DNA of 63,893 nucleotides, counting the filler, from Licmophora abbreviata (Eukaryota), in the NCBI GenBank assembly GCA_900291995.1. It is 11 parts of 11 records of this genome, joined end to end, with 100 filler letters (N's around TTAATTAATTAA, not from the genome) between each part and the next. Parts side by side here need not be neighbours in the genome. Positions count along the whole stretch, not along the records: positions 3,324 to 15,035 come from OLMU01002937.1; 10 more parts are not named here. One strand, written 5' to 3'. Position numbers and translations under genes: made by a program. Below are positions 924-16,575 of the stretch, piece by piece. Positions within the stretch are counted from its first letter, which is position 1. The number at the start of each line of letters is the position of its first letter. The notes below the pieces were generated by a model that saw only the letters and a list, made by a program, of their open reading frames with translations, did not search any database and was not told the origin of the DNA.

Positions 924-3223
924 TCAAACTGCTGCTGGGTCGTCCGCGTCGGTTGATACTGGTTCTATTGACTCATCAATAATTTCCTCAGCTCCTGCGA
1001 AGAGAACTTTGCGACCTTTATCATCTCCAACAGCGATGACTTCAATGTGCTTTCGTTCGGACATGTGCTTACCCTCAATGTAATTTGCACGAGCCAGAGT
1101 GCTGTTTTCCTTGGCGTTGTCTTCTTCTAAATCGCTCTTGATGGAGCGGATCGAAAGCTGATTGTCTTCGCTTTCCGTGTCGCCACCAAAGGAAGACCTG
1201 CCTAATGAAACGAAGGATGGCTTGATCTCTTCGTAAAGATTGTCGCGCTTCTCTTCGCTGCGCGACTCCCAGAGTGCCAAAAACTCTGAGTACGATATTA
1301 GACTGTCCTCTGTAAGGTCAACCTCCTTGATGATTTCGTCGATCTCTTCCTTGGGAAACTCGTTACCAAGCATTTCGGCAAGATTAGAAGCCGAAATGTA
1401 CCCCGAATCGTCAGAGTCCAGTCGATCAAAGGCCTCGGCGAGGCGTTCTTCGCTGATGGCTCCGTGGGCCTCGATGGTGGCGGCGAGAAACTGCAAAAGG
1501 CGGAAGCAGAATGTAAGCCTCGTGTCCTCGACATCAATGCATTATAATGGATACATGTTCACGTACCTCAGTGTAGCGAATCTTGCCTGTTCCATCGAGA
1601 TCCACAGCATCAAACATATCCTCGATTTCATCCTCCGAGTAGCGATACTGTCCCATTGCCTCTTTGAACTCTTCAAAGCTGAGACAACCATCCTTGCGAA
1701 CGTCATACTGCTGGAAAATCTTGCGCAAGATACCGATTTCCTCACTAGTCGACTTGTGCGCAATCACCATCAGGGATAATTTCTTCAACTTGCTGTATCC
1801 CGCAAATGCTTTCAAAGACTTGTTGGATTCTGTCATTTCGTCCATTGTCGGCGCACGCACCGTAGCACCATAGCGTTTGTTCAGCCACAGGTTGCTAAAT
1901 GCTTCGTCGGCTGTCGGACGATCGTCCGGGTCCACCACCATCATGCCCTCGACAAAGGCCTTGGCCTGTTCCGAGATGCGCTTCCAGCGGCGACCACGGA
2001 AATCGAACTGGCACTTCATGATTTGCTCTACAATGTGACGTCGCTTGCGCCCATAGAACGGCATCTGACTGGACAGCAGCATATAGGCGATGACTCCGAT
2101 ACTCCAAATGTCAGCCTTTTGCGTGTACGATCCTTTGAGCACTTCAGGCGCCATGGTGTAAATCTATGGAAGTACCAACGGCATGAGAGAGATTGAACGT
2201 ATTTTCGGCGCCAACGTACGAACCATTCCAAACGTACCGTTCCAACGCCGTCGGTGAGCATCTGTCCACCAATGTACCTTTTGGACAAACCAAAATCAAT
2301 GAGCTTGACCTCGGCGTACGGGCTGTCGTTGACAAAGAGGACATTCTCGTACTTCAAATCTGCACGTGGGTGTATGTGAGCGACAGAGGGGTGCGCCACA
2401 CCTGCATCTAGCACCGATACACACACATGTCCAACTTACCTCGATGTGCAATGCCTTTGGAATGCATAAAGGAAACAGCGCTCAAAATGGAACTTGTAAT
2501 GCGAGCCGCCTCTTCTTCTGTGTACGGATCACGCGAGTACAAGTCCCCGCCTCCACACAGTTCCATGACGATAAAGAGCTGGTTACGATGAAAGAAGGTC
2601 TCAATGGGACGCACAATGTGCGGGTGATCGAGATTCTTGAGAATTTCAATCTCATTCTTGAGCTCTTCAATGAAAGTTTCGTCCTTGACTCGATTCAAGT
2701 GAATACTCTTCATGGCGTATACCATGTTCGCCCGACTGGTTCGCGACGACACGGTGTCTTCGTCCGAGGTGACTCCCGATTGTGTCGAATCCACCGACTC
2801 GAAAGCATTCCTCTTAGAGAGACTGGAATGGTGCGAAGAATCGATGACACTCTGATCCAATGTGCCCTTCATGCAAAACATGAAGATTGGACCAAGCACT
2901 GGAATCGAGAAGCATTCCTTTTCCTTCTTTTGCTTTTTGAATGACTCGACAAGGATCTGGCGAGCAGATCCTCCGACTACTTCGTCTCTCTTTTTAACAG
3001 TCGCCACTGATCCCATACTGCCGACGCCCACGACATTGACGACTTCGTAAAAGAACAACGGGTCGCGGCCTTTCTGCTCTCTCATCAGATGAGACCGGAG
3101 TCCCTCACCAGCATGAAGGCCAACGGAAGACCCCGATCCCGTGGATCGAGTTGATCGCTGAGACTCTGTGACGAGTTCTTCCGAGTCTTCTGGATCGGAA
3201 AATCGTACCGAGCGCCGCTGCGG
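924..3223 (-). CDS. Calcium-dependent protein kinase-like #1 (kinase + 4 EF-hands), 5' end lost in gap
   Basis: Exons 3223-2440, 2359-2238, 2163-1567, 1490-924 with GT-AG introns. Motifs GVGSMG, YAMK, HRDLKYEN, DFG, MAPE. EF loops DVRKDGCLSFEE, DLDGTGKIRYTE, DSDDSGYISASN, DLTEDSLISYSE. Confidence 0.92.
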
Positions 3224-3323
3224 NNNNNNNNNNNNNNNNNNNNNNNNNNNNNNNNNNNNNNNNNNNNTTAATTAATTAANNNNNNNNNNNNNNNNNNNNN
3301 NNNNNNNNNNNNNNNNNNNNNNN
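3224..3323. other. Artificial scaffold linker N44-TTAATTAATTAA-N44
   Basis: 100-bp N run with a six-frame stop core; identical structure at 10 sites. Confidence 0.98.
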
Positions 3324-3695
3324 CCTCTTTCGCTCTCGCAGCTGTGTCGAAAGATTCGTGTTGGGTTCGTCGCGGCGGTCGCATCTCTCGCAGGATTCAA
3401 TGTTCGCTTCTTGTCAGATGACTAGAAACATCAATGAAGCGATATTACATTATGTAAATGCGTCATTACGAAATCCAATAAGTAAATGACACAAATAACC
3501 CGGATTTTGTCTCCAAACTTCCGGCTCGATTTCGGAACATCCGTCATCGCATCACGACACGCATATGCTCTCGCGTTGGGATCGGCATCATCGCTGTGAT
3601 CGGTGATGATGTCGATGTCGCTACTGTTGTTGATCCTGTAGAGACCTGAACATCGTCTCCTGAGATACCGCAACACTACGACTGTGCTCCTCACA

Positions 3696-5768
3696 ATGGG
3701 AAATAAGAATGCAAAGAGCGCCGAGGCGGCAGAAGAGCATCCCTTGGGAGGATCCACTCCGATTCTAGGGCTTCACGACAAGCTGCTGCGACACCAGCAG
3801 AGCGGCCGCGACCCTCAAAAGATCTACGACGTCGTCGAAGTCCTGGGTGTCGGATCGATGGGATCCGTCAGTAAAGTCAAGAAAAAAGAGTCGGTGCTTG
3901 GCGGCTCGGCTCGGAGCTCCTTCGTCGAGAGCTTTCGTCCTGGCAGCAGCGACTGCTTTCGCATCGTACCCTTCTCGTGGTGTTTTGGAAAGCACTCGTC
4001 GCCGCTCACAGCCAAAAAGGGAGCCCTCGTGACGACGCCCGATACTAGCTCCCATGACAGCGTAGCATCGAATCCCAGAAAACTTCTGCGAAAGACGTCG
4101 TCGCTCATCACGTACAATCACAAGGAAACCTACTTTGCTCTCAAATCCATCATTCTGGACAAGACGGGAAGCGCCGAGCTCAAGGAAGAACTGCGCAACG
4201 AAGTTGCTATTTTGAAAACCCTCGATCATCCCAACATTGTCACACCGCTGGAAACCTTTGAATACAAGCGCCAGCTCTGTATCGTCATGGAACTCTGCAG
4301 TGGCGGTGACTTGTATTCGCGGGATCCCTACACGGAGCGGGAAGCCGCGCGCCTCACTAGATCCATACTCAGCGCCCTCAGCTACATGCACATGCGCAAG
4401 ATCTCGCACCGCGACTTAAAGTACGAGAACATCATGTTTGTCTCCAGTGATCCCCTGGCCGATATTAAGATTATCGACTTTGGATTGTCCACCAAGTATG
4501 GTGACAATGAAGTCATGCACGATGCGGTTGGGACCATTTACTCCATGAGCCCTGAGGTGTTGCGCAGCGACTACTCGTACAAGTCGGATGTATGGAGTAC
4601 AGGAGTACTCTTGTTCATGCTCCTGTCGAGTAGCATGCCGTTCTACGGAAGGAGTAAGAAGCATGTCATGCAAAAGATTCTTCGTGGGACGTTTGCTTTC
4701 AAAGGACGCGTCTGGAAGTACATTTCAGAAGAAGCCAAGGATTTTGTGACGGAACTGTTAAAGTACGATCCAGAGGACCGACCAACGGCAGAAGCCGCCC
4801 TGGACTATGTGTGGTTAACAACGCAGAATGACTTGTTGGCACCGGAGGTGGCCAAGATGGACGTCGTCCAGGCGACAGTTGAGAATTACGCGACCTACGG
4901 CACCTTGAAACGACTGGCCTTGATGGTGATTGCCTACCAGTCTACAAACGACGATATCGGCTTTTTACGACGAATGTTTAAAAAGTATGACAAGAATCAG
5001 GATGGTGATATGACGCTAGATGAGTTTCGATCGGTGTTGGCTGAGGATTACGACTACACGGACGAGGATGTGGAACGAATGTTCCGTGCCATGGTAGGGC
5101 CGTGTTACGCATGGATGTTGATGGGTCTAGTTGTGAAACTCACTCACGTCGATCTATGCTTTGCACAGGACTTGGACCGAACGAATTGTATACACTATTC
5201 AGAGGTACGTACCGATTGTGAAGTGCCAGAAGACGCTACCTTGATGTTGGTGACGCTGATACTTTTTGTCTCTCCACTGCCGCTGTCGTTCCAGTTTCTG
5301 GCCGCCACTATCGAAGCTCACGGCTCGTTGGACGAGGAGCGACTCGCCGAGGCGTTTGATAGATTGGACAGTGACGACTCGGGCTATATTACTGTCCAGA
5401 ATTTGGCCGACATGCTTGGTAAGGATGTAAAGAAGTCATACATTGATGCCATCATCGACGAAGCGGACATGACTCGCGACCACCAAGTTTCTTACGAAGA
5501 ATTCCTGGCGCTATGGTCGAATGAGGATGACGAAATCCATAGACAGGAAACCTTGTCGCGCATCACCAGGCGGCGACTAGGACGACAGACAAGCTCGACG
5601 TTATCTCCAGCGTCATCATTTTCAGATCATACAGACATGGATCACTACCTCGAAGTGGAAGAATTGACTGCTAACTACTCCGACTTCAGCGGGGACGAGC
5701 CCGTAAGTGGTACCTTCCTGTTTCAAAAAGAGAAGGCAAAATCCGTTCGCAGCTTTGCAGATATATGA
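3696..5768 (+). CDS. Calcium-dependent protein kinase-like #2, N-myristoylation-type start MGNKNAK
   Basis: Exons 3696-5093, 5169-5204, 5295-5768; introns of 75 and 90 bp are both in-frame and stop-free. GVGSMG, FALK, HRDLKYEN, DFG, MSPE; four EF-hands. Confidence 0.93.
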   Translation: MGNKNAKSAEAAEEHPLGGSTPILGLHDKLLRHQQSGRDPQKIYDVVEVLGVGSMGSVSKVKKKESVLGGSARSSFVESFRPGSSDCFRIVPFSWCFGKHSSPLTAKKGALVTTPDTSSHDSVASNPRKLLRKTSSLITYNHKETYFALKSIILDKTGSAELKEELRNEVAILKTLDHPNIVTPLETFEYKRQLCIVMELCSGGDLYSRDPYTEREAARLTRSILSALSYMHMRKISHRDLKYENIMFVSSDPLADIKIIDFGLSTKYGDNEVMHDAVGTIYSMSPEVLRSDYSYKSDVWSTGVLLFMLLSSSMPFYGRSKKHVMQKILRGTFAFKGRVWKYISEEAKDFVTELLKYDPEDRPTAEAALDYVWLTTQNDLLAPEVAKMDVVQATVENYATYGTLKRLALMVIAYQSTNDDIGFLRRMFKKYDKNQDGDMTLDEFRSVLAEDYDYTDEDVERMFRAMVGPCYAWMLMGLVVKLTHVDLCFAQDLDRTNCIHYSEVRTDCEVPEDATLMLVTLILFVSPLPLSFQFLAATIEAHGSLDEERLAEAFDRLDSDDSGYITVQNLADMLGKDVKKSYIDAIIDEADMTRDHQVSYEEFLALWSNEDDEIHRQETLSRITRRRLGRQTSSTLSPASSFSDHTDMDHYLEVEELTANYSDFSGDEPVSGTFLFQKEKAKSVRSFADI

Positions 5769-5824
5769 GCTAGGGTACCAGTAGTCACTTTTGTATATAT
5801 TAAATTATGTCTCTATCGGTGATA

Positions 5825-6973
5825 CTACATCTTCTCTGTGGTAGTTTTGGGTAGAGCTTTCTCAGCCGGCTTCACTATGGTCTCATCGTTTGCTTCAACG
5901 CTAGTTATCTCTTGTGGTACATTCCCGTGTTCTGGCTCTTCTGCCCGGGCCTCGACTTCTTGTTTGCGCTTCTCCTCTCTTCGTCGCTTGGCTTGTCGAC
6001 TCGAAAATGGCTTGCGGAAGGCTTCGTACAGTCCACGCACTTTCATCGGACCCACTCCCGGACAGGTACAAAGTTCATCCACTGACGCTGCTACCACTGC
6101 CTTCAAGCTTCCAAACTGCGACAACAGCTGAGCCGCATCAGTCTTGTTGACACTCTTGGCGGTCACCAAAACGTCCGCCACTTGATCCGCAAAGTTGGTC
6201 TGCTCTCGTTTCTGAATCGACGATGCATCCTTACCGTCAAGTGCCTTGAACGTTTCCAGGTACCGAGCTGCCTCTTCTTCCGTCCAACTCAATATCAACG
6301 TCATATTGTGCTGTACCGCCAGGCGATTGAGCTGCAAGAGGGTGTTGACGTTGTCTTCCACATCTACCAGCACCAGCAAGATTCGAAGGACAAAATCTGT
6401 CTTTAGCTCCGCTATACGACGATGGATGTAATCCGGGTATAGACTGTGATACTTGCAAGACAGAAAGAGAGCACACCGACTTGTGTGAAGTATGTAATCA
6501 GGGACCATGGTTGCGAATTGAAACGGAACGTTTCGAACGAACTTGAGCAACCCATTGCCGCGTTGCTTGGTCGAAACGTACAAGACATGTGGTTGCTGAA
6601 GGAGCGTGTGGTGATCTCGCGCAGTCGTTAAGCCAGAGGCGTCAGATTGCGCTGCTGTAGCTTCGTCAAACGCTCGTTGCTGCGCCCACGATTCACTGGC
6701 GGCCTCGCTGGATCCAGGTTTTCCATCACCAAGTTTGGACAGCTCACTCCGAAAGTGAGTCGTATCTTCCACTGACGAAAAGGCTTGACTAAAGCTTGCT
6801 GTAGCTCCGATCTCCACTGCCGTTAAGGCCCCTTGTTCCTGTGGCGGTCGTTTCTTGGAAGAGCTGTTGCCTGGGACGACATTGCTATTTCCGCTACTCT
6901 TGTCGACGCTAGCATCAGTTGTGGCCGCAGTCAGTTTCGTTGAGTTCTTAGCGGCTGTGTAAGGATTCTTCAT
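5825..6973 (-). CDS. ERCC1: DNA excision repair protein ERCC1/Rad10
   Basis: KQRGNGLLKFVRNVP, ALFLSCKYHSLYPDYI, LRILLVLVD, SWTEEEAARYLETFK, plus C-terminal HhH2 (VNKTDA...FGSL...CPGVGP). Confidence 0.95.
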   Translation of the reverse strand: MKNPYTAAKNSTKLTAATTDASVDKSSGNSNVVPGNSSSKKRPPQEQGALTAVEIGATASFSQAFSSVEDTTHFRSELSKLGDGKPGSSEAASESWAQQRAFDEATAAQSDASGLTTARDHHTLLQQPHVLYVSTKQRGNGLLKFVRNVPFQFATMVPDYILHTSRCALFLSCKYHSLYPDYIHRRIAELKTDFVLRILLVLVDVEDNVNTLLQLNRLAVQHNMTLILSWTEEEAARYLETFKALDGKDASSIQKREQTNFADQVADVLVTAKSVNKTDAAQLLSQFGSLKAVVAASVDELCTCPGVGPMKVRGLYEAFRKPFSSRQAKRRREEKRKQEVEARAEEPEHGNVPQEITSVEANDETIVKPAEKALPKTTTEKM

Positions 6974-7281
6974 ACCCTCTCGAGCACCACCACTTGCTCT
7001 GTCTCGCCTTGTAACGCGGTTGATGACACTCCTTCGTTCGAATCAAAGTTGCCGCCGGACACCGGTCGCGATGTGCTCTCATGGGCAACACTGATGATGA
7101 GATGTTCGCGGCGCCGCATGGTCTGAATCGACTCGCTCGACTCAATCTTTGCGAGCTATGCGAAGAGCTCATCGGTGTGGCTGTGACCTTTTTTGAAACT
7201 ATTTTGGTGCCAAGAACTCTATGATACGACGAGTGCAATCCAACGTGATCAACATGGAACAATTCTACAAAAAATGGTGTG

Positions 7282-9562
7282 CTAAAGGCCCTCCAGATAT
7301 TGGACTTGCTCCCAGGTAACGGTCTCCTCGACAATGTCGCTCCCTGACATGTAAACGATGGAGATCAAGTCACCTGCGACGTAAATAAGCTCGTCTTCGC
7401 CTTCTGCAAGATGACGAGCCTCATGCTGGCGATTCTGCCTCAATTTCTTGGCTGCAAAGGCATGAGCGGCAACCCTGCCCTCTTCGCTTACGCGCCCTGC
7501 GCTCGGGCTGAGATGACGAGGTACCCGAAGCATCCTGTTGGATCCGGGGCCCGGGCAATGAATGCCACAACCAGGTAAATTGAGATCAGCAATGGAGAAC
7601 GGGTCGGCCGCATTATAGTTGACGGTATACCCAATGTCCTCTAGAGAGGCGATTGTTATGGACGACAAGGGTTGTTCTGCTCCGGAGAGAAACCCCGTCA
7701 TGAGCTCGTGGGAGAGACATGCTTCGTCGAAGTGTCCATTCTTTGTGCCGGCGCCTCCATCTTGTTCCACCGGCAGAGGACCAGAGCAGCCAAGTTGTTC
7801 CCATTCGTACTGTGCATTGGTTACCGTACTGTAGGCAGGGCTATCTTTCACGTGTACAGAGTTCGTCTGCCACACACTGCCAAGGCCAAGAATCTTTGAA
7901 AAGGAGACGAGTAAGATTCAGTTTGATTATTCCTTTCATTGAATACATGAACAAGCGATCACAACATTAAAGAGTACTTACATGGCCCAACTCATGCATG
8001 ATTACCTCCTTGAAAGTATTTCCATTGACCAGTCCTGCAACATCGCTTGCGTCGAATTTCATTACCCCAGTAAGGGCCATTTCGTACTTTTTCCCATTGT
8101 AGGGATTGATTTCTTGCACTCGCCGAAGATACACAGGACCCGCGTATGCCAGGATCCCACCGCTCCCGTCCATAGGTTCGTCTCCACCACACACATAAAT
8201 ATCATCAACCGTTTGTGGTACTTGGTTGCATGTGTATGGATAGTTTTCCAGGGTCGTGGGCGAAAATGTATAGGACTTCACATCTCCGCTAAGAACACTC
8301 TCCCACCTGGCTTGAACCTCAGTGAAGGCTTGTGCGTCCTCCAGAGAAATAGAAGTGGAGACTAAGTCGAGACATATGCTACAAAGAGATATTTAGAAAC
8401 AGAGCAAGTTGAGAACAAACATGCGCAAGCTTGGGACCACTCCGTTTTTGCCGAGATCTCGCCACTTACTTGTAGCGACTCGTGTCATCGAAACCACATG
8501 ATGACGGCAGAGCAAACTCTGCAGAAAGATGAGCGAATCGCAAAACGTTGAGACCCGTCTACATATCAGACTGAACATGAAGTCGAGCTACTTACGTGCA
8601 GGAGGGACTTCGACGGGGTCGGGGCTTGTAGGCGGCGGAACATAAACTTTGGTGTCGTAGACCAACCCGGCATCCATCGTATAGAAGACGTTGTCTGATT
8701 CACCAATTTGAGTCGCTTGCAGGCCAATGAAAGCCCCTTCGGTCACGACCACCTCCTTCTTGAACGATAGAATCTGGTGCATCAGCCCATCTCCGCTCAC
8801 AAGCGCGATAGCATGCTTGCTCTTCAGCGAATTCCAATTCGTGGTGCGGTCATCGTTGAGAAGGTAAGTCGCAAAGTCACCATCCTCGGATGTCCCATGA
8901 CGCTTCCCAAGAGAGCTGTATTCGACATTGATTTCTCCATTCTTGTTAAACACAATAACAGAGAAGTCAAACGGAATCAGACTGCGAGGGAAGGATATCT
9001 CGATGAAATTTGCGCGCTTGTACGACACTTGAGAGAAGAATCCTCGAGTGCCCGAGGTGAAATACTCGGATGTGCTGAGAATACCGGGTGTCCCAACGAT
9101 GCTCGGCACGTATTCTCTGCCTTCATCTTCTGTGTAGAGACAACGTCTCACCTTGCCTACCTTGGTGGACTCTTGGCCGACAGCTGGTCCCTCAGAGGCC
9201 GTCACGGAGTTCTTGAAAGAGAGGAACTGTTCGATCTCGTCTTGAGCATTGACCAATGCGAAAGCGTCGTTGCTGCTAAACTCTTCAAACGCGCCACCAG
9301 CGCTCTCCTCATTGATAACGTACAGGTTCCAGCCGTCAACCATCTTGACCGGAGAGCCCATGCTGTAGGATGTCTCGACCCGGCCCTTCTTGTCGTACAC
9401 ATACAACAAGAACAACGATGCATCGGCGGTGCTTGCGGGGATCACCACCTCAATGAAATCTTCTGAGCTGCATACCTCGGAAATATAGCCAAGACTCAAA
9501 ACAGGTACAAGGTTTCCTAATAAGAGCGATAGAGTTGCAATCAGTCCCAATGGGTGTCTCAT
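7282..9562 (-). CDS. Secreted leishmanolysin-like (M8) zinc metalloprotease #1 with two N-terminal LTD-like repeats
   Basis: Exons 9562-8596, 8518-8470, 8378-7982, 7893-7282. Signal peptide MRHPLGLIATLSLLLG; HELGH|ILGLG zinc motif; PVEQDGGAGT..GHFDE..ELMTGF; LEDIGY. Confidence 0.88.
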
Positions 9563-10227
9563 CTTGTTTCACTGAGTTGGGGATTGTGGAAGGTTTCAGA
9601 TTGTGTCACGATGTATTCACGGTTCACTGTTCACTGTTCACAGAAGGTTTGCACGACAATTGAAGTTCAAACGCGACTGATATTGTCTTGCAGTATCCTC
9701 CGTGGTCCGAGGCATGAGCGATTCACATCTGCGTGATGACTTGAAACTCGTGCGTGATGGGCGCTGATAGCAATGCCCGTCAGCATGCGTCCCGAAACCG
9801 TTAATGCAACAGGTTTCCCAACTTATCATACCCCTCCTCCTGAACACCATATATGACTGTCCTATTTACTGTCATTCGTTGCGCTGTATCAGACTTCCCA
9901 TCGTCGCCGACGGTTTATGACACTCAATGTTGCTTCACGCCGGATCACGAGACGGAACGCGCGGTATCTTTTCGGGGGCTTTCCCGCCAAACTCTTGGAG
10001 GTGCTGTACCTCGGGTATCGCGCGTGCTATCACAGCGCGTTATCGAGTCGCGAGTCGCGACTCACTCATCACTCGGGACTAATGTGCATCGCGAGCTCAG
10101 ATTGGCAACATATGTAGCTCATAACCCACATACTAGTGAATATGTAATACTGAGTTCAAACAATCTTTCGCGGCGAAGAAAGAGATAGCAACAGCAACTC
10201 ATATGGTAGAAGTATATTGACATTCAC

Positions 10228-13200
10228 CTAGCCCCCATACATATTCTTTACTTCCTCCCACCCGACCGTAATCTCGTAAATAGTCGTATTCTCCATGTAC
10301 ACAACAGAAATTAGGTCGCCTCCGACAAAAATGAGATCGTCTTCGGAAGTCTCCGCTATCCGACGCTCTTTGTTCTCTTGACGTATTTGCTCCATTTGTT
10401 TTCTTGCAAATGCATTAATAGCAGACCGACCCCCTTTGCTGAGCGGAGGGGGAGGAGCATCCTCCTTCGTGTTTTTCAGAAAGCGTTCGCGTCGGTAGCC
10501 CGGGCATTGTATGCCACATGCGTCCAAATCTAGATCATCGAGAGTCATCGGATCTGCAGCGTTGTAGTTAACTTCATATCCCATGTCTTGAAGAGTGCCT
10601 ACCGTCATTCTTGACAGTGGTTGCTCTGAACCAGTAATCCATCCTGTCATTAGCTCATGGCGCATACAGGCTTCATCGTAATGTCCATCTTTGGTTCCTG
10701 GACCACCATCTTGCTCGACTGGAAGGACAGAGTAGGTACAGCCTTGTGTGAGCTGCTCCCATTCGTATTGGGCATGAGTTCCTGTAGCGTATTCCGGGCT
10801 GTCCGTGACGTGTAGGCCATTGCCAAAAACGGTGTTGTACGTCCACAAAGTACCAATTCCAAGAACCTAGGAAAGAATATGGATAAAAATGGCATAGGGG
10901 TGAGAAAAGCAACCTGGAACATGTTGGCGCTCAACGTGCTTTCTTTTACTTACATGTCCCATTTCGTGCAGTATCACGCCTTCGAGTAAGTCTCCTTGGA
11001 CCATCCCGGGGACGTCGGAAGAATCGAATTTCATGACCCCTGTTATTGAGATCCAATAGTTTTTCCCAGTTTTCGGATTGGTCGTTCCAGGTAGTTTTCG
11101 AATGTGATATGGCCCGGCAAACCCTAGAACACCTCCAACTCCATCAATAGGCTCGTCGCTACCACAGATGTACGTGTCATCAAGTACATCGGGCATCCCA
11201 TTGCAAATAGCAGCCCCCAATCTAGACGGCGCATTTCCGAACTGTGGTAAATCCCCCATGATGACAGACTCCCACTTGTTTTTTGCATTGATGAACGCTT
11301 GGGCGTCTTGAAGGGAGATGTCGACCAGATTCAAATCGAGACACATGCTACAACCAATCAAACAGTAAGATATGAGCGACGAATGGAAGTCGTCCTATCA
11401 ACCACCTCTCCAAGTCACGAACACTCACCGGTATGTTGATTCATCGTTGGAATGGCACGAAGACTGAAGACCGAATTCTACAAACGCGAGAGGGAACACG
11501 ATACGGGTCAGCTTGTGCACTCATGGCACTGGTTCCACCTCATGGCTGTGTCACTTACCGGCGGAAATCGACACCGAGGGGGATGTCGGCTCCGGGGTGG
11601 GAAAAGGAGTCCATTCAGGAGTAGGCCACGGTGTGGGTTCAGGCGTCGGCTCTGAAGTAGGCCACGGTGTGGGGAAAGGCGTCCATTGAGTTGGCCATGG
11701 AGTTGGCCATGGAGAGGGATATGGAGTTGGCTCTGGCGTAGGATACGGCGTGGGTTCTGCGGTGGGAAATTTTGTTGGGACAGCCGAAGGCATCATTGTG
11801 GAAGGTCCAGGTGTGGGCCATGGAGTTGGCTCTGGTGTCGGCTCGGGAGTCGGATGTGGTGTTGGGTCAGGTGTCGGCGCAAATGTTGGCCAAGGAGTAG
11901 GCTCTGGAGTTGGCCACCATGTTGGGTCGGGAGTAGGCCATGGCGTAGGCTCTGGAGTTGGCCACCATGTTGGGTCGGGAGTAGGCCATGGAGTAGGCTC
12001 TGGAGTTGGCCACCATGTTGGGTCGGGAGTAGGCGACGGCGTAGGCTCTGGAGTTGGCCACCATGTTGGGTCGGGAGTAGGCCATGGCGTAGGCTCTGGA
12101 GTTGGCCACGGTGTTGGGTCGGCTGTCGGCCAAGGAGTAGGCTCTGGAGTTGGCCACGGTGTTGGGTCGGCTGTCGGCTCTGGGGTTGGGTCAGGCGTTG
12201 GCCATGGGGTAGGTTCCGGGGTTGGTGCGGGAGTTTCTTGTGTGGGTATGAGCGTTGTAGGCGTAGGTTCAGGGGTTGGGTCGGGCGTTGGCCATGGGGT
12301 AGGTTCCGGGGTCGGCTCACCTGTTGGTTCTGGGGTGGGTTCGACTGTGGGCACCCAGGTGGATGGCGTTGGCTCAGGCGTGGGATCCGATGTTGGATCC
12401 GGTGTGGGCTCTGGGGTTGGCTCGGGTGTAGGATCGGGAGTCGGTTGAAGCGTCGGATATCGAGTTGGTTCCGGGGTCGGCTCACCCGATGGCTCTGGGG
12501 TGGGCTCGATCGTCGGTACCCAGGTGGACGGCGTGGGCTCGGGAGTCGATTCTGGAGTTGGAACATCAGTAGGTGCAACACCCTCAGCTTCTGGTGTGTC
12601 AGTTGGCCATGGTGTTGGTTCCGGAGTCGGCTGTTCAGTGACAATAGGGGCGGGCAGAGCTGCCGAATCAACAACTGTGAACGTTACACTCAATGCTCCT
12701 CCTGCCGCCTGAGAGGCTCCAGCACCTTCAAATGGAATTGCTGTGACTGTGTGCTCCCCGACTGAGAATGATCCTGATTTATAGTCTCCACCAGAATCTT
12801 GGAATAGCGCGTACGGTGCAACGTTCTCCGTATGATAATTCTGGTTATCGTCAAATTGGAATTTCACCGAGCCAGCATTGCCCACAACGTTGGCCCGCAT
12901 ATTGAGGGCAGCGCCAACTACCGATAGATTTATCGTGCTTCCACCTTGCAAAGAGGCTCCGATCGGAAGGTTGGTGTTCGCATCAATCAGAGATAGACTC
13001 TCAACATACATTGAATCGATTGACGAGTCCGTCGGTTGCTTCGTGGGTACCATTGAGGGTGCAGAAATCGGAGGAGCTGGAGGACTGGTCACATCAATGA
13101 CCTCGATAGTTAGAACAAGAGTTGCACCCCTCGTTCCTTGCGCTTGCTCGTACAAATAGGGTGTCGCTGTGATGGTATGAGTACCAACCTTAGACAGACG

Positions 13201-13505
13201 AGGGACAGGAGAATAGTCACCATTGGTGTCGCCACTCAACGACCAGGGCTGCACATTCTCGGTCTGATCTAGCGCTGGCTTCCCGTCCAGCTCAAAGACG
13301 ACAGACCCTACGGTCCCAACAGTATCTGCGCGTACTGAGAGCGAGGTTCCCGTTTCCGATAGGTGAATGTGATCGCCATTCATAAGACCGAAGATCTCCT
13401 CATTTGTGTCAGCATTGATCAGCGAGAAACCCGTCACTACTCCTTGGCCGGCTACGGCGCAAAGAGACGATAAAAGATGACAATGGAGAGGGAAATAGAT
13501 CTCAT
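10228..13505 (-). CDS. Secreted leishmanolysin-like (M8) metalloprotease #2 with two beta-sandwich repeats and a long Pro/Thr stalk (1-nt frameshift in signal peptide)
   Basis: Exons 13505-11559, 11477-11429, 11347-10954, 10866-10228. [31 protein letters not shown]. Adding one base to the A4 run at 13472-13475 restores the signal peptide [20 protein letters not shown]. Confidence 0.87.
11585..12630 (-). repeat. Coding tandem repeat: [16 protein letters not shown] mucin-like stalk (12-bp basic unit, ~48-bp higher-order unit at ~11894-12100)
   Basis: Repeated ggagtaggctctggagttggccaccatgttgggtcgggagtaggccat-like units; translation is (PTxx)n. Confidence 0.95.
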
Positions 13506-13989
13506 CTTCGACTAGTCAGGCCCTCAGTCACCATTCCCAATGCGAGAGTGGATAATACGATGGAGTGTTGGATTTCGAAAGGTGAAGCCTCATGAGAATA
13601 ACGCTCTCGAAGGCCGGCGAGCTCGGCGTTATGACATAGTATCGGATGCCCACTGAGCACTGCTGTACAGATTGTAGACCAAGTCTAAGACATTGTACAT
13701 AGAAAATGTCCAAAGAAGGCGCCAGCTTTCCATCGACAGACTGTCAGTGAGTGAATCCACGATTCACGCATCCGTGACCGAGCATGTGGCGCGACTGCCC
13801 ATTCACGGCGCATACTATTAGTGTCAACTTTTTGTCCAAACCATCCGGAGATGAGCCTCAATTGCGACTTACGGTACACTGACGCCAATGCTAATCATCA
13901 CGCATCAGTGACTCGTGTGATCATTGGGAAGCGTAGCTACGTATGGTTATTGTCGATGCGGAAGTGCTGGCAGTCTTCTAACATCCTCG

Positions 13990-14680
13990 TTCTATTTCGA
14001 ATCCTCCCATCTACCGCAATGACTGGCGCCGCCTCCAACAAAGGCGGGCTTCCGCTGGCTCATTTAAGCAACGACCTTCGCTCGCAGGAAGCCGCCCAAA
14101 CTCTATGGTGGCATTTCTCACAGTATAGCTGTCTCACTCTTTGCGCAATGACAGTCTACTCGCTGCGGTCTGGCTGTCATCTCTCAGCGGACCCACTCGA
14201 AAAAATTGTTCAGTGCCCATTTGGACCCGGCAAAGATCTCCGGAAACGGTGATATTCAAGTCAAGTGGGGTGAAAACATAGGCTTCGGGGTTTTTAATCG
14301 GATACCCAAGGTCGATTAAACTGCTCACGACTATTCGTGGCGGCGACTTATTTCCGAAAATACAACTGGAAGTGACGCGGCTCGTTGTCGGTGACCTCCT
14401 TCAGCAGCGATGGGACCTGACGACCTGACGGGTTCGGTGATGAACAAGTCCCATGTCCATCGATTGTACTCGCTCCTTTAGAGGCCTTTCAATTTTTCTT
14501 TTAGAACGCGAGTGTCCTATTTCGAGCAGATTTATCAGAAGATGGCACAAAAATGATCGTCTCGTCTTCGCTCAATGCCAATCTCAGCTCCTTTGCAAGA
14601 AACACCGGTGAGCGGGTCGATGGAACACTAGCCTATCGTTTCCGGCCTTGCCGAAGCCATAAAAAAGGTCAGGAGTTGAG
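13990..14680 (-). pseudogene. Decayed third copy of the M8 metalloprotease catalytic region
   Basis: Collinear fragments across frames and stops: IDPLTG..A.IG, LLEIGH (14529-14512), SGPIAAEGG, RIVVSSLIDLGYPIKNPEAYVFTPLDLNITVSGDLC (aligns without gaps to [36 protein letters not shown]), FVGG. Confidence 0.6.
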
Positions 14681-15035
14681 AGCAGCTTTCGTTGCTTAGA
14701 TTGCATCGCTCGAACATGCCAGTGCTGTATCTGGCTAACGTGAAAGCATTTAGCAGAACACGGCTAATGTTGCTTTGTTGTCGTCAGCGTTGTTGTGACT
14801 GGCCTGTTGGCTCTTCAGAACTTTGCTTCGGTGGATTGAATCTTCTAGACAGTTGTGGACAGGTCGTTTGTCTCACCAGAGTATCTTTTGTCTTGTCCAT
14901 GTAGTAACGCAACATCGCTGGTAGTCTAGTCGCCCGGCATATGCAAAGGGTTCACGCAGCTAGGAATAACAGGCATCAACTGAATGCGGATGGCATCCGA
15001 GCGCGCATTGCGACGCGCTGGCCCAGCCCTTTTTC

Positions 15036-15135: not shown

Positions 15136-15177
15136 ACAGTCTTCCACACGTCACATTGAAACAAAGCACACAAAAAG

Positions 15178-16575
15178 ATGACAGCTCAAACGAGCTATCT
15201 CACGATGACCGGGACACGGAGACGACTCCCACAGTGGAGATTGATCTTCCTCTTGATAGCTTCTAACGTTGCTCTGTTCTCAAATTTGTCGGTGTTGAGA
15301 CAACTGCATACATCGCAGACTATTTGGAACGGAGGCGAGCGGGCTGTCATCTCCTATCCTCCGGGGCACAATCAAGATGACTCCATGCATCCTCGTCAAC
15401 CACGAGATGCCGTCGAAGAGACGCTGATCTTCGATTCTACTCGAAAATCTCGACCTGCGCCATTTAGCAATTATGCCTACGCGTTTCTTGTGGCTGGATG
15501 TAATCACGATACGCCCGCGTGTCTGGGCTACTTGTACAACATTCTGAACGCTAGGTATATTCTGAATGAGACAGGCTCAACCGCCGATATGGTGGTCATG
15601 GTACGCATGGCGAGCGATTCATCGTCAGAGTATCTTCCGTTCGATCAAGCCAAACTTTTGAATGACAACGGAATCCGAATAACGTACCTACCGAGAGCTG
15701 CCCAGGATAATTTCTACTCTGCCGTCATGGATAAGTTCTACATTCTCAACATGACCGAGTACCGTCGTGTCCTCTATCTCGACAGCGACGTAATCCCATT
15801 GTGTAACTTGGACTACGTCTTCCATTTATCGGATGGAGATCACCCTGTTCTGAAAGAAAACTTTGTTATTACGTGGCAGAACGAGCCTGCCCAAGGTGGA
15901 TTCTTCATGCTCAAACCTGGTCGTGGAGAGCTCGAAGAGCTCCAGGGTATCGTAGAGGCCCAAGAAGCAAAGATGCAAGACAAAAACGAAGATTGGAACG
16001 AAACCATTGGATGGGGACATAAGATTGAGGCGCCAGACTCATGGCAATCACTGAGGAAGGCAAACCAAACATGCTGGAATTTCTATGGAGCATATGCCGA
16101 CCAAGGATTGCTTTATCACTGGACCAAGTACGTCAAAAAGAGCGTATCGATCGTTATCTTCGATACTCTACAGACATGGTCAGCCACGCGAATGGACGGC
16201 ATTGATCTTGTACACCTGGAGCGAACGGATCCAGGAGTGCTCGACAAATACACATGTTCTGAAATGGACCTGGGCGGTGCAGCACGTCTACGCCATGCCC
16301 CCATGAAGGACTTTTACCATTTCGCTGGACACGAAAAACCGTGGACCAAGACGTACGAGAAACTGCCGATCGACGTATTGGATACCAAATCGGCGGAAAC
16401 GCCTGTGCAGCTTTGGTTCCACGCCGCCCGAAACGTGATCGCGCGAAACCATCTCACCATAGATCCTATGAACATGACAGATCTAACAGTCGGTCCGCTA
16501 GGCAAGACTCTTGTACGAAAGATGAAACTTGCATCTATAGTGGCAAAACGAGACAAAATGTCCGATTTCCACTAA
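15178..16575 (+). CDS. Type II membrane GT8-family (glycogenin-like) glycosyltransferase
   Basis: N-terminal TM; KFYILNMTEYRRVLYLDSD (DxD), ADQGLL, HFAGHEKPW. Intronless. Confidence 0.85.
   Translation: MTAQTSYLTMTGTRRRLPQWRLIFLLIASNVALFSNLSVLRQLHTSQTIWNGGERAVISYPPGHNQDDSMHPRQPRDAVEETLIFDSTRKSRPAPFSNYAYAFLVAGCNHDTPACLGYLYNILNARYILNETGSTADMVVMVRMASDSSSEYLPFDQAKLLNDNGIRITYLPRAAQDNFYSAVMDKFYILNMTEYRRVLYLDSDVIPLCNLDYVFHLSDGDHPVLKENFVITWQNEPAQGGFFMLKPGRGELEELQGIVEAQEAKMQDKNEDWNETIGWGHKIEAPDSWQSLRKANQTCWNFYGAYADQGLLYHWTKYVKKSVSIVIFDTLQTWSATRMDGIDLVHLERTDPGVLDKYTCSEMDLGGAARLRHAPMKDFYHFAGHEKPWTKTYEKLPIDVLDTKSAETPVQLWFHAARNVIARNHLTIDPMNMTDLTVGPLGKTLVRKMKLASIVAKRDKMSDFH

Follow-up and report, generated by a model that had tools for sequence, protein, structure and literature searches.

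A tandem pair of predicted secreted M8-like protease genes with a shared catalytic cassette and unrelated N-terminal modules in the diatom Licmophora abbreviata

Gene structures and the shared catalytic cassette

The window analyzed here, a stretch of 63,893 nucleotides (nt) with filler included, joins 11 parts of 11 records of the diatom Licmophora abbreviata (GCA_900291995.1); its positions 3,324-15,035 correspond to OLMU01002937.1. The minus strand of this record contains, between positions 7282 and 13515, two genes with an identical four-exon plan, which we refer to as gene A and gene B and whose products we predict to be secreted proteases. The introns have phases 1, 2, and 0 and occupy identical positions in the two genes. 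The first exon of each gene is long, intron-less, and closed by a Pro/Thr-rich stretch, whereas the catalytic cassette that follows is split by two further introns.

Spliced gene A is a clean open reading frame (ORF) of 674 amino acids (aa) with a TAG stop at 7282. Its exon 1 (8596-9562) opens with an ATG at 9562 and encodes a hydrophobic N-terminus, two modules that we call A-type, and a short Pro-rich linker that runs into a phase-1 GTAAGT donor. Intron 1 (8519-8595; 77 nt, phase 1, GT..AG) is followed by the 49-nt exon 2 (8470-8518), where the conserved cassette begins (QFALPSSCGFDDTSRYN), by intron 2 (8379-8469; 91 nt, phase 2), and by exon 3 (7982-8378), which terminates exactly at HELGH. 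Beyond intron 3 (7894-7981; 88 nt, phase 0), exon 4 (7282-7893) opens with ILGLG and encodes the third zinc-binding His, the Met-turn, and a C-terminal extension of about 100 aa that runs up to the TAG codon. Both the hydrophobic N-terminus and the lack of a C-terminal anchor in gene A are apparent from inspection and hydropathy. The corresponding parts of gene B are an open frame for exon 1 (11559-13515), which encodes a pair of B-type modules followed by about 360 aa of Pro/Thr linker (11560-12645) and ends at a phase-1 GTAAGT donor; intron 1 (11478-11558; 81 nt, phase 1); exon 2 (11429-11477; 49 nt); intron 2 (11348-11428; 81 nt, phase 2); exon 3 (10954-11347), which terminates at HEMGH; intron 3 (10867-10953; 87 nt, phase 0); and exon 4 (10228-10866), which opens with VLGIG and again encodes the third His, the Met-turn, and the C-terminal extension before a TAG stop. 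All six introns (77-91 nt) are of the GT..AG type with GTAAGT or GTGAGT donors, and their acceptors are YAG in five cases and AAG in intron 3 of gene A. The coordinates given in the original prediction proved correct to the base, as did its junctions, the 49-nt exons, the exon end at HExxH, and the exon start at (I/V)LG(L/I)G. Moreover, the exon 2/3 (YN/ICLDL) and exon 3/4 (HEMGH/VLGIG) junctions align without gaps with the relatives P0001 and P0003, the latter from a Thalassiosira minuscula transcriptome set. The two gene structures are real and form a neatly organized pair.

The linker of gene B contains a 48-nt coding tandem repeat (11888-12170; 5.9 copies, 93% matches). Two metagenome contigs have joints inside this linker (11662 to 12610 and 12511 to 12545), with short sides or inserted letters; these are hints of length variants or repeat mis-joins, too weak to interpret.

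The three-exon cassettes of about 350 aa are identical at 185 of 362 residues (51%; E 2e-132), and the similarity begins with the first residue of exon 2. They open with the family-wide motif x(F/Y)GLQxxCxxxDxSxYN-ICLDL and place the third zinc-binding His 54 residues past HExxH and the Met-turn 11 residues past that His. By tblastn, these two are the only copies of the cassette in the window. In Pfam scans carried out on each exon rather than on whole spliced proteins, exon 4 matched Peptidase_M8 (PF01457) with 25.6 bits in gene A and 28.2 bits in gene B, against a gathering cut-off of 21; exon 3 by itself had no Pfam match. A cassette profile searched against PDB matched leishmanolysin (1LML) with an E value of 1.2e-9, and HExxH, the third His, and the Met were all aligned: HELGH and HEMGH fell on HEMAH of 1LML, and its GHWDE...ELMTG stood opposite SHIKMRNAQDELM, with a His-to-Met spacing of 11 in both. 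We take the aligned 1LML residues to be His334 and Met345. The Pfam scores and the 1LML match bear out the earlier assignment to M8, and the view that both genes encode M8 (leishmanolysin)-like zinc endopeptidases is supported as a prediction.

The C-terminal extension (7285-7590 in gene A and 10231-10560 in gene B, minus strand) carries the pattern CGxxCPG ... SxEGR ... TVxWE and has no family assignment. It is common to the two genes, P0001, P0003, and the best matches, and is absent from the two bacterial relatives that were aligned (P0004 and P0011).

N-terminal modules and the wider protease family

In front of the cassette the two genes have nothing detectable in common. Gene A encodes an A-type module at 9143-9499 and an internal repeat of it at 8648-9070, and gene B encodes a B-type module at 13093-13443 and its internal repeat at 12646-13020 (all minus strand). 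The pairwise score of the two A-type copies is 132, compared with 28.9 +/- 4.8 for shuffled sequences (z = 21), and that of the two B-type copies is 172, compared with 29.7 +/- 5.4 (z = 26); none of 500 shuffles reached the score in either case. No similarity between A-type and B-type modules was found, with z values from -0.6 to 2.3 and an hhalign probability of 0.06%. Both statements made about the first exons at the outset, that each holds a tandem module pair and that the two are unrelated, therefore hold, and homology between the N-terminal regions was not detected.

The A-type module has no Pfam match, and neither copy matched LTD (PF00932) at E values up to 10. An LTD-like nature is a lead that comes from a label on 32% of one Atlas cluster; for the bacterial relative P0015, the LTD score is 17.1 bits, below the cut-off of 34.3 (E 0.0075). 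A profile of the module found nothing below E 0.04 among PDB sequences. Its AlphaFold model is a beta-sandwich (predicted local distance difference test score [pLDDT] of 84.9) whose best structural matches are generic immunoglobulin (Ig)-like domains: the match to the Ig-like domain of lamin B1 (7dtg_A; Z 7.0, root-mean-square deviation 2.8, 88 residues) is tied with that to 8ent_B (Z 7.2) and lies below an informative Z. Foldseek returned nothing at E values up to 0.001 for the models of either module type.

Three clusters (P0015-P0017) were the only relatives of the A-type module detected in a length-limited search, which covered proteins of 177-564 residues. They are 40-43% identical to the module, share its GYISEV start, and carry a C-terminal Hint_2 domain. 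A scan with P0016 as the query found genes combining the A-type module with Hint_2 at 26 loci of Rhodobacterales, including Sulfitobacter, Yoonia, Loktanella, Litoreibacter, and others. By tblastn, the module of gene A itself matched six of the seven Rhodobacterales loci that hold the N-terminal part, and 22 of 151 sampled Rhodobacterales genomes. The module was also observed in Rhodobacterales ORFs of 1400-2300 aa (in genomes G046, G105, G108, and others), twice per ORF in three genomes, which suggests that it is mobile within Rhodobacterales too and is not just the front of a Hint_2 protein. Another observation concerns the bacterial-type Hint_2 domain itself: in P0010 it follows an M8 cassette, and in P0015-P0017 it follows the A-type module; both halves of gene A thus have relatives that are fused to a C-terminal Hint_2 domain.

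The B-type module has 78 relatives, nearly all of them large multidomain proteins, and the few whose source is named are bacterial. Many of these combine tandem copies of the module with type IX secretion system (T9SS) sorting domains and with glycoside-hydrolase or other enzyme domains. The Big_7 domain (PF17957) is a lead for its family membership: copy 1 scores 17.7 bits, below the cut-off of 24.1, and copy 2 has no match, while passing Big_7 matches lie inside a B-type copy in P0019 and P0042 and between copies in P0033. A B-type profile matched one solved chain, All3314 (7b5h, chain AA residues 1290-1404, E 9.9e-8); thus, a structure of this module family may already exist. The model of the B-type module is a beta-sandwich (pLDDT 79.6) with weak FN3- and Ig-like matches. 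The M8 relatives P0155, P0166, and P0203 have B-type modules ahead of the cassette as well, and in the cassette tree the first two of these fall in a clade distant from gene B.

The family of the cassette is large: 8708 representative proteins were collected at E<=0.001 in an exhaustive profile search, 2595 of them at E<=1e-30. In a quick tree search with the 85 rows that span most of the cassette (the other 68 of 153 rows were omitted for partial coverage), genes A and B are sisters with a Shimodaira-Hasegawa-like approximate likelihood ratio test (SH-aLRT) support of 99. The 153 rows comprise 151 library proteins with a cassette match and the two window genes. Two relatives are labelled as diatom proteins, one from Thalassiosira minuscula and one from Nitzschia sp. 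Nitz4, the latter with a leucine-rich repeat (LRR) region ahead of the cassette. The conserved block of many relatives opens with x-YGLQxxCxxxDxSxFNICLDL, which is the exact start of exon 2 in both genes, and in 20 of the 53 relatives with more than 60 aa upstream, the 40 aa just ahead of this motif are rich in Pro, Thr, and Ser (PTS-rich; at least 45%). What lies farther upstream is highly variable: the 66 of 153 cassette proteins that have 120 or more residues ahead of the cassette form 43 BLAST clusters, 34 of which are singletons. Peptidase_M8 was found in 29 of 31 long relatives at E<=0.001 (27 reached the 21-bit cut-off), and seven of the 31 contained another named Pfam domain: PT repeat (twice), PhyH, LRR, Chitin_bind_1, B_lectin, and Fibrinogen_C. 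Bacterial relatives (P0004-P0014), which are intron-less, combine the same cassette with a P-domain (P_proprotein), Big_1, Calx-beta, and Hint_2. A metagenome scan with exon 4 yielded a single locus from 284 candidate stretches; it comprises 42 residues at a contig end, without the 5' part. Sister cassettes with unrelated fronts, together with 43 N-terminal types among 66 proteins, fit the proposal of one cassette with exchangeable N-terminal modules, and module exchange within this large family, whose N-terminal regions have been changed repeatedly, is well supported by these comparisons.

P0002 shows one further layout: a partial cassette comes first, then an entire one, and behind these a hydrophobic segment and a tail rich in Gln. 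Such a protein would represent a tandem version within the family that is anchored in the membrane.

Origin of the pair and competing explanations

The best overall explanation, and one that we consider probable, is that genes A and B are tandem-duplicated genes for secreted M8-like proteases that share a cassette and of which at least one has had its 5' exon replaced. A gene for a secreted leishmanolysin-like zinc endopeptidase (MEROPS M8) would have been duplicated in tandem on a nuclear chromosome, with replacement of the 5' exon of at least one copy after or during the duplication. Gene A has two copies of a beta-sandwich module whose only detected relatives are N-terminal modules of Rhodobacterales proteins, most of which are fused to Hint_2, and gene B has two copies of a different beta-sandwich module, of a kind widespread among secreted multidomain enzymes of bacteria, together with a long Pro/Thr linker built from repeats. 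The recombination site would lie at or just upstream of intron 1, within either the intron or the linker-coding DNA. In the products, an N-terminal signal peptide would route the proteins to the secretory pathway, the Pro/Thr linker would be an extended and probably O-glycosylated spacer, and the module pairs may anchor each protease on a particular extracellular ligand or surface, in which case the paralogues would cut in different places. The putative targeting role is suggested by the roles that such modules have in bacterial enzymes; mucilage, biofilm, and bacteria, the targets named in the original prediction, are speculation. The pair is ordinary but tidy domain swapping after gene duplication.

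Several points weigh against replacement of the front of a secreted protease. The predicted enzyme activity, secretion, glycosylation, and binding by the modules are drawn from the sequence, and the signal peptides were assessed by eye and hydropathy only. For the proposed junction between exons 1 and 2, the support is limited to intron phase, the quality of the splice sites, and the way relatives are built. Contigs from four sequencing runs show none of the six introns spliced out; these contigs are sparse, short, and apparently genomic, with no RNA run among those listed and shares of 0.05-0.16 for the best-matching runs. One contig record (11312-11462) is collinear through intron 2 of gene B, and a run guessed to be RNA gave short collinear pieces, none of which bridges an intron as spliced. 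The searches for relatives of the A-type module were word- or pattern-limited, so that eukaryotic relatives may have been missed. Finally, the start of gene B is broken as assembled, so gene B may be a pseudogene.

The break is a matter of one base. Between the ATG of a signal-peptide-like start (13503-13505, minus strand) and the remainder of exon 1, the reading frame shifts by one base. The frame of this ATG closes after 17 codons; the long frame of exon 1 (13515-11551) is closed upstream at 13516 and has its first Met not before residue 45. The notion that each first exon encodes a signal peptide followed by tandem modules thus stands for gene A, and the module pairs stand for both genes, but the signal peptide of gene B is out of frame with its modules, and a continuous exon would need an extra base or another start. 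No signal-peptide-like sequence was found among the upstream minus-strand ORFs in 13516-13900, and among the contig records listed none extends past 13438, which apparently leaves the break near 13474 uncovered. The only candidate intron that would restore the frame is a 17-nt GT..AG stretch (GTCTCTTTGCGCCGTAG), which we rejected as far too short, the six introns here measuring 77-91 nt. By inspection, one added base in the T run at about 13474-13477 merges both frames into a typical signal peptide, which fits a homopolymer miscount; the break could be such a miscount or a genuine frameshift. That gene B is a pseudogene or has a mis-assembled 5' end, with a real break that leaves gene A as the only source of a secreted protein, strikes us as rather unlikely, because the roughly 1000 codons open downstream, the four exons with intact splice sites, and the full set of catalytic residues argue for recent or current function. 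Far less credible is the idea that the cassette is transcribed separately from exon 1, or that the two are connected otherwise than modelled. No spliced contig joins them, yet the two first introns, at just 77 and 81 nt, are too small to accommodate another start, both exon 1 frames stop at consensus GTAAGT donors in the exact phase that exon 2 requires, the cassette by itself has neither a start codon nor a signal peptide, and relatives carry the N-terminal region, linker, and cassette in a single ORF. We regard this arrangement as extremely improbable.

How the fronts came to differ is a separate question. On the one hand, the phase-1 intron 1 coincides to the residue with the start of A-B homology in both genes and with the start of the family-wide conserved block, as expected of an exon-shuffling boundary, and the data are compatible with exon shuffling mediated by introns. 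On the other hand, A and B are sisters, so that intron 1 was inherited together and the coincidence counts once; the pair is weak evidence for intron-based shuffling as a general mechanism. In its strict form, this explanation holds that recombination within phase-1 intron 1 repeatedly joined preassembled 5' exons, each with signal peptide, modules, and linker, to the cassette and so diversified a diatom family. The contrast between long intron-less first exons and a cassette with two further introns speaks for it, as do the very diverse N-terminal regions in the family. However, the genomic loci are only two, the intron-less bacterial relatives pair the same cassette with a variety of accessory domains, the low-complexity Pro/Thr-coding DNA that borders the intron on its upstream side (and is made of repeats in gene B) is equally able to host a crossover, and the swapped unit is a 5' terminal exon rather than a symmetric 1-1 internal exon. 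We consider the strict form possible but doubtful. Alternatively, an ancestral long first exon may have held both module types, with each duplicate shedding one pair. Mixed tandem module arrays are common among the bacterial relatives of the B-type module, and the occurrence of B-type modules in distant M8 clades suggests that a B-type front may be old; however, the A-type module was found in none of 152 proteins searched, and neither gene retains a remnant of the other's module type. Such differential loss seems very unlikely to us.

Replacement of at least one 5' exon after gene duplication, the explanation we prefer, can be extended to the source of the modules. A diatom lineage may have captured modules of the Roseobacter group (A-type) and of a Bacteroidota type (B-type) and grafted them via the phase-1 intron onto an old M8 cassette, so that shuffling fed by transfer would direct secreted proteases to surface ligands of a bacterial or bacteria-like kind in the phycosphere. 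Taken as a whole, this extension is a conjecture that we think unlikely to be right. The GC content of the modules and that at third codon positions (GC3) gave no foreign signal; GC3 lies within the local range, and any bacterial transfer would thus not be recent. The locus is not a bacterial contaminant, because the genes next to it are ordinary ones of a eukaryote: an EF-hand protein kinase, similar to calcium-dependent protein kinases (3642-5768, plus strand), and ERCC1/Rad10 (5825-7042, minus strand). The window also contains a weak GT8-like ORF (15160-16575, plus strand) and a second kinase fragment (2408-3271, minus strand).

Comparison with known systems

Diatoms condition their surroundings via secreted proteins. 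The pair described here shows that sister catalytic cassettes can bear entirely different, putatively targeting modules, and the detectable relatives of these modules belong to marine bacteria, among them the Roseobacter group. Should substrate or surface specificity depend on the modules, pairs of paralogues like this one would be natural experiments on the targets of diatom extracellular proteases.

Secreted modular metalloproteases as a kind are already known, and what is new here is the domain combinations. In the diatom Nitzschia putrida (PMC9054022), leishmanolysins are reported to be enriched among the proteins of the predicted secretome. The original view that no such system had been described in diatoms thus does not apply to secreted leishmanolysins, and it stands for the modular N-termini: in the main-text literature on diatom leishmanolysin, exon shuffling, and secretome metalloproteases, we came across neither these combinations of modules nor the paired paralogues. 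On exon shuffling in diatoms, one publication offered a general remark only, and we found no publication joining the Hint domain with Roseobacter.

Leishmanolysin (GP63; 1LML) resembles the two products in its HExxH motif, in a third His that follows an insert, and in a Met 11 residues later. The alignment extends over about 140 residues around the active site and no more. In comparison with leishmanolysin, the cassette of genes A and B is much shorter and does not end in a C-terminus resembling a glycosylphosphatidylinositol (GPI) anchor, and the two products have their own N-terminal Cys motif, C-terminal extension, and N-terminal beta-sandwich modules. A second comparison is with the M08 proteases of stramenopiles. 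Besides the N. putrida set, multidomain M08 proteases have been described in oomycetes, among them PITG_08774 of P. infestans with an EGF-like domain (PMC8035641). As far as the main-text passages of these two publications go, such proteins share with A and B the M8 domain, predicted secretion, and sometimes an accessory domain, whereas tandem LTD-like or Big_7-like modules, the intron structure, and paralogues with swapped fronts do not appear in those passages; the supplements may list architectures.

The bacterial relatives P0004-P0014 have the same cassette core, with 36-56% identity over the aligned 30-77% of exon 4, and varied accessory domains. In contrast to A and B, they have no introns, their accessory domains are other ones, and the two that were aligned lack the C-terminal extension. 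The Rhodobacterales proteins (P0015-P0017 and loci L002-L027) match the other half of gene A, the 40-43% identity being to its module copy 1; unlike gene A, they have a single module copy, no signal peptide, and a fusion to Hint_2 instead of a protease.

The proteins of diatom adhesive trails offer a parallel in overall design. They contain CAA domains of bacterial derivation and PTS-rich regions (bioRxiv 10.1101/2023.03.06.531300). They are structural adhesives rather than enzymes, and the text of this preprint uses none of the words peptidase, protease, and metalloprotease. Like the predicted products of genes A and B, these proteins are secreted and modular and combine PTS-rich linkers with domains attributed to bacterial transfer; if the module origins suggested here hold, the protease pair would provide an enzyme among the secreted proteins of diatoms that are known to contain bacterial domains.

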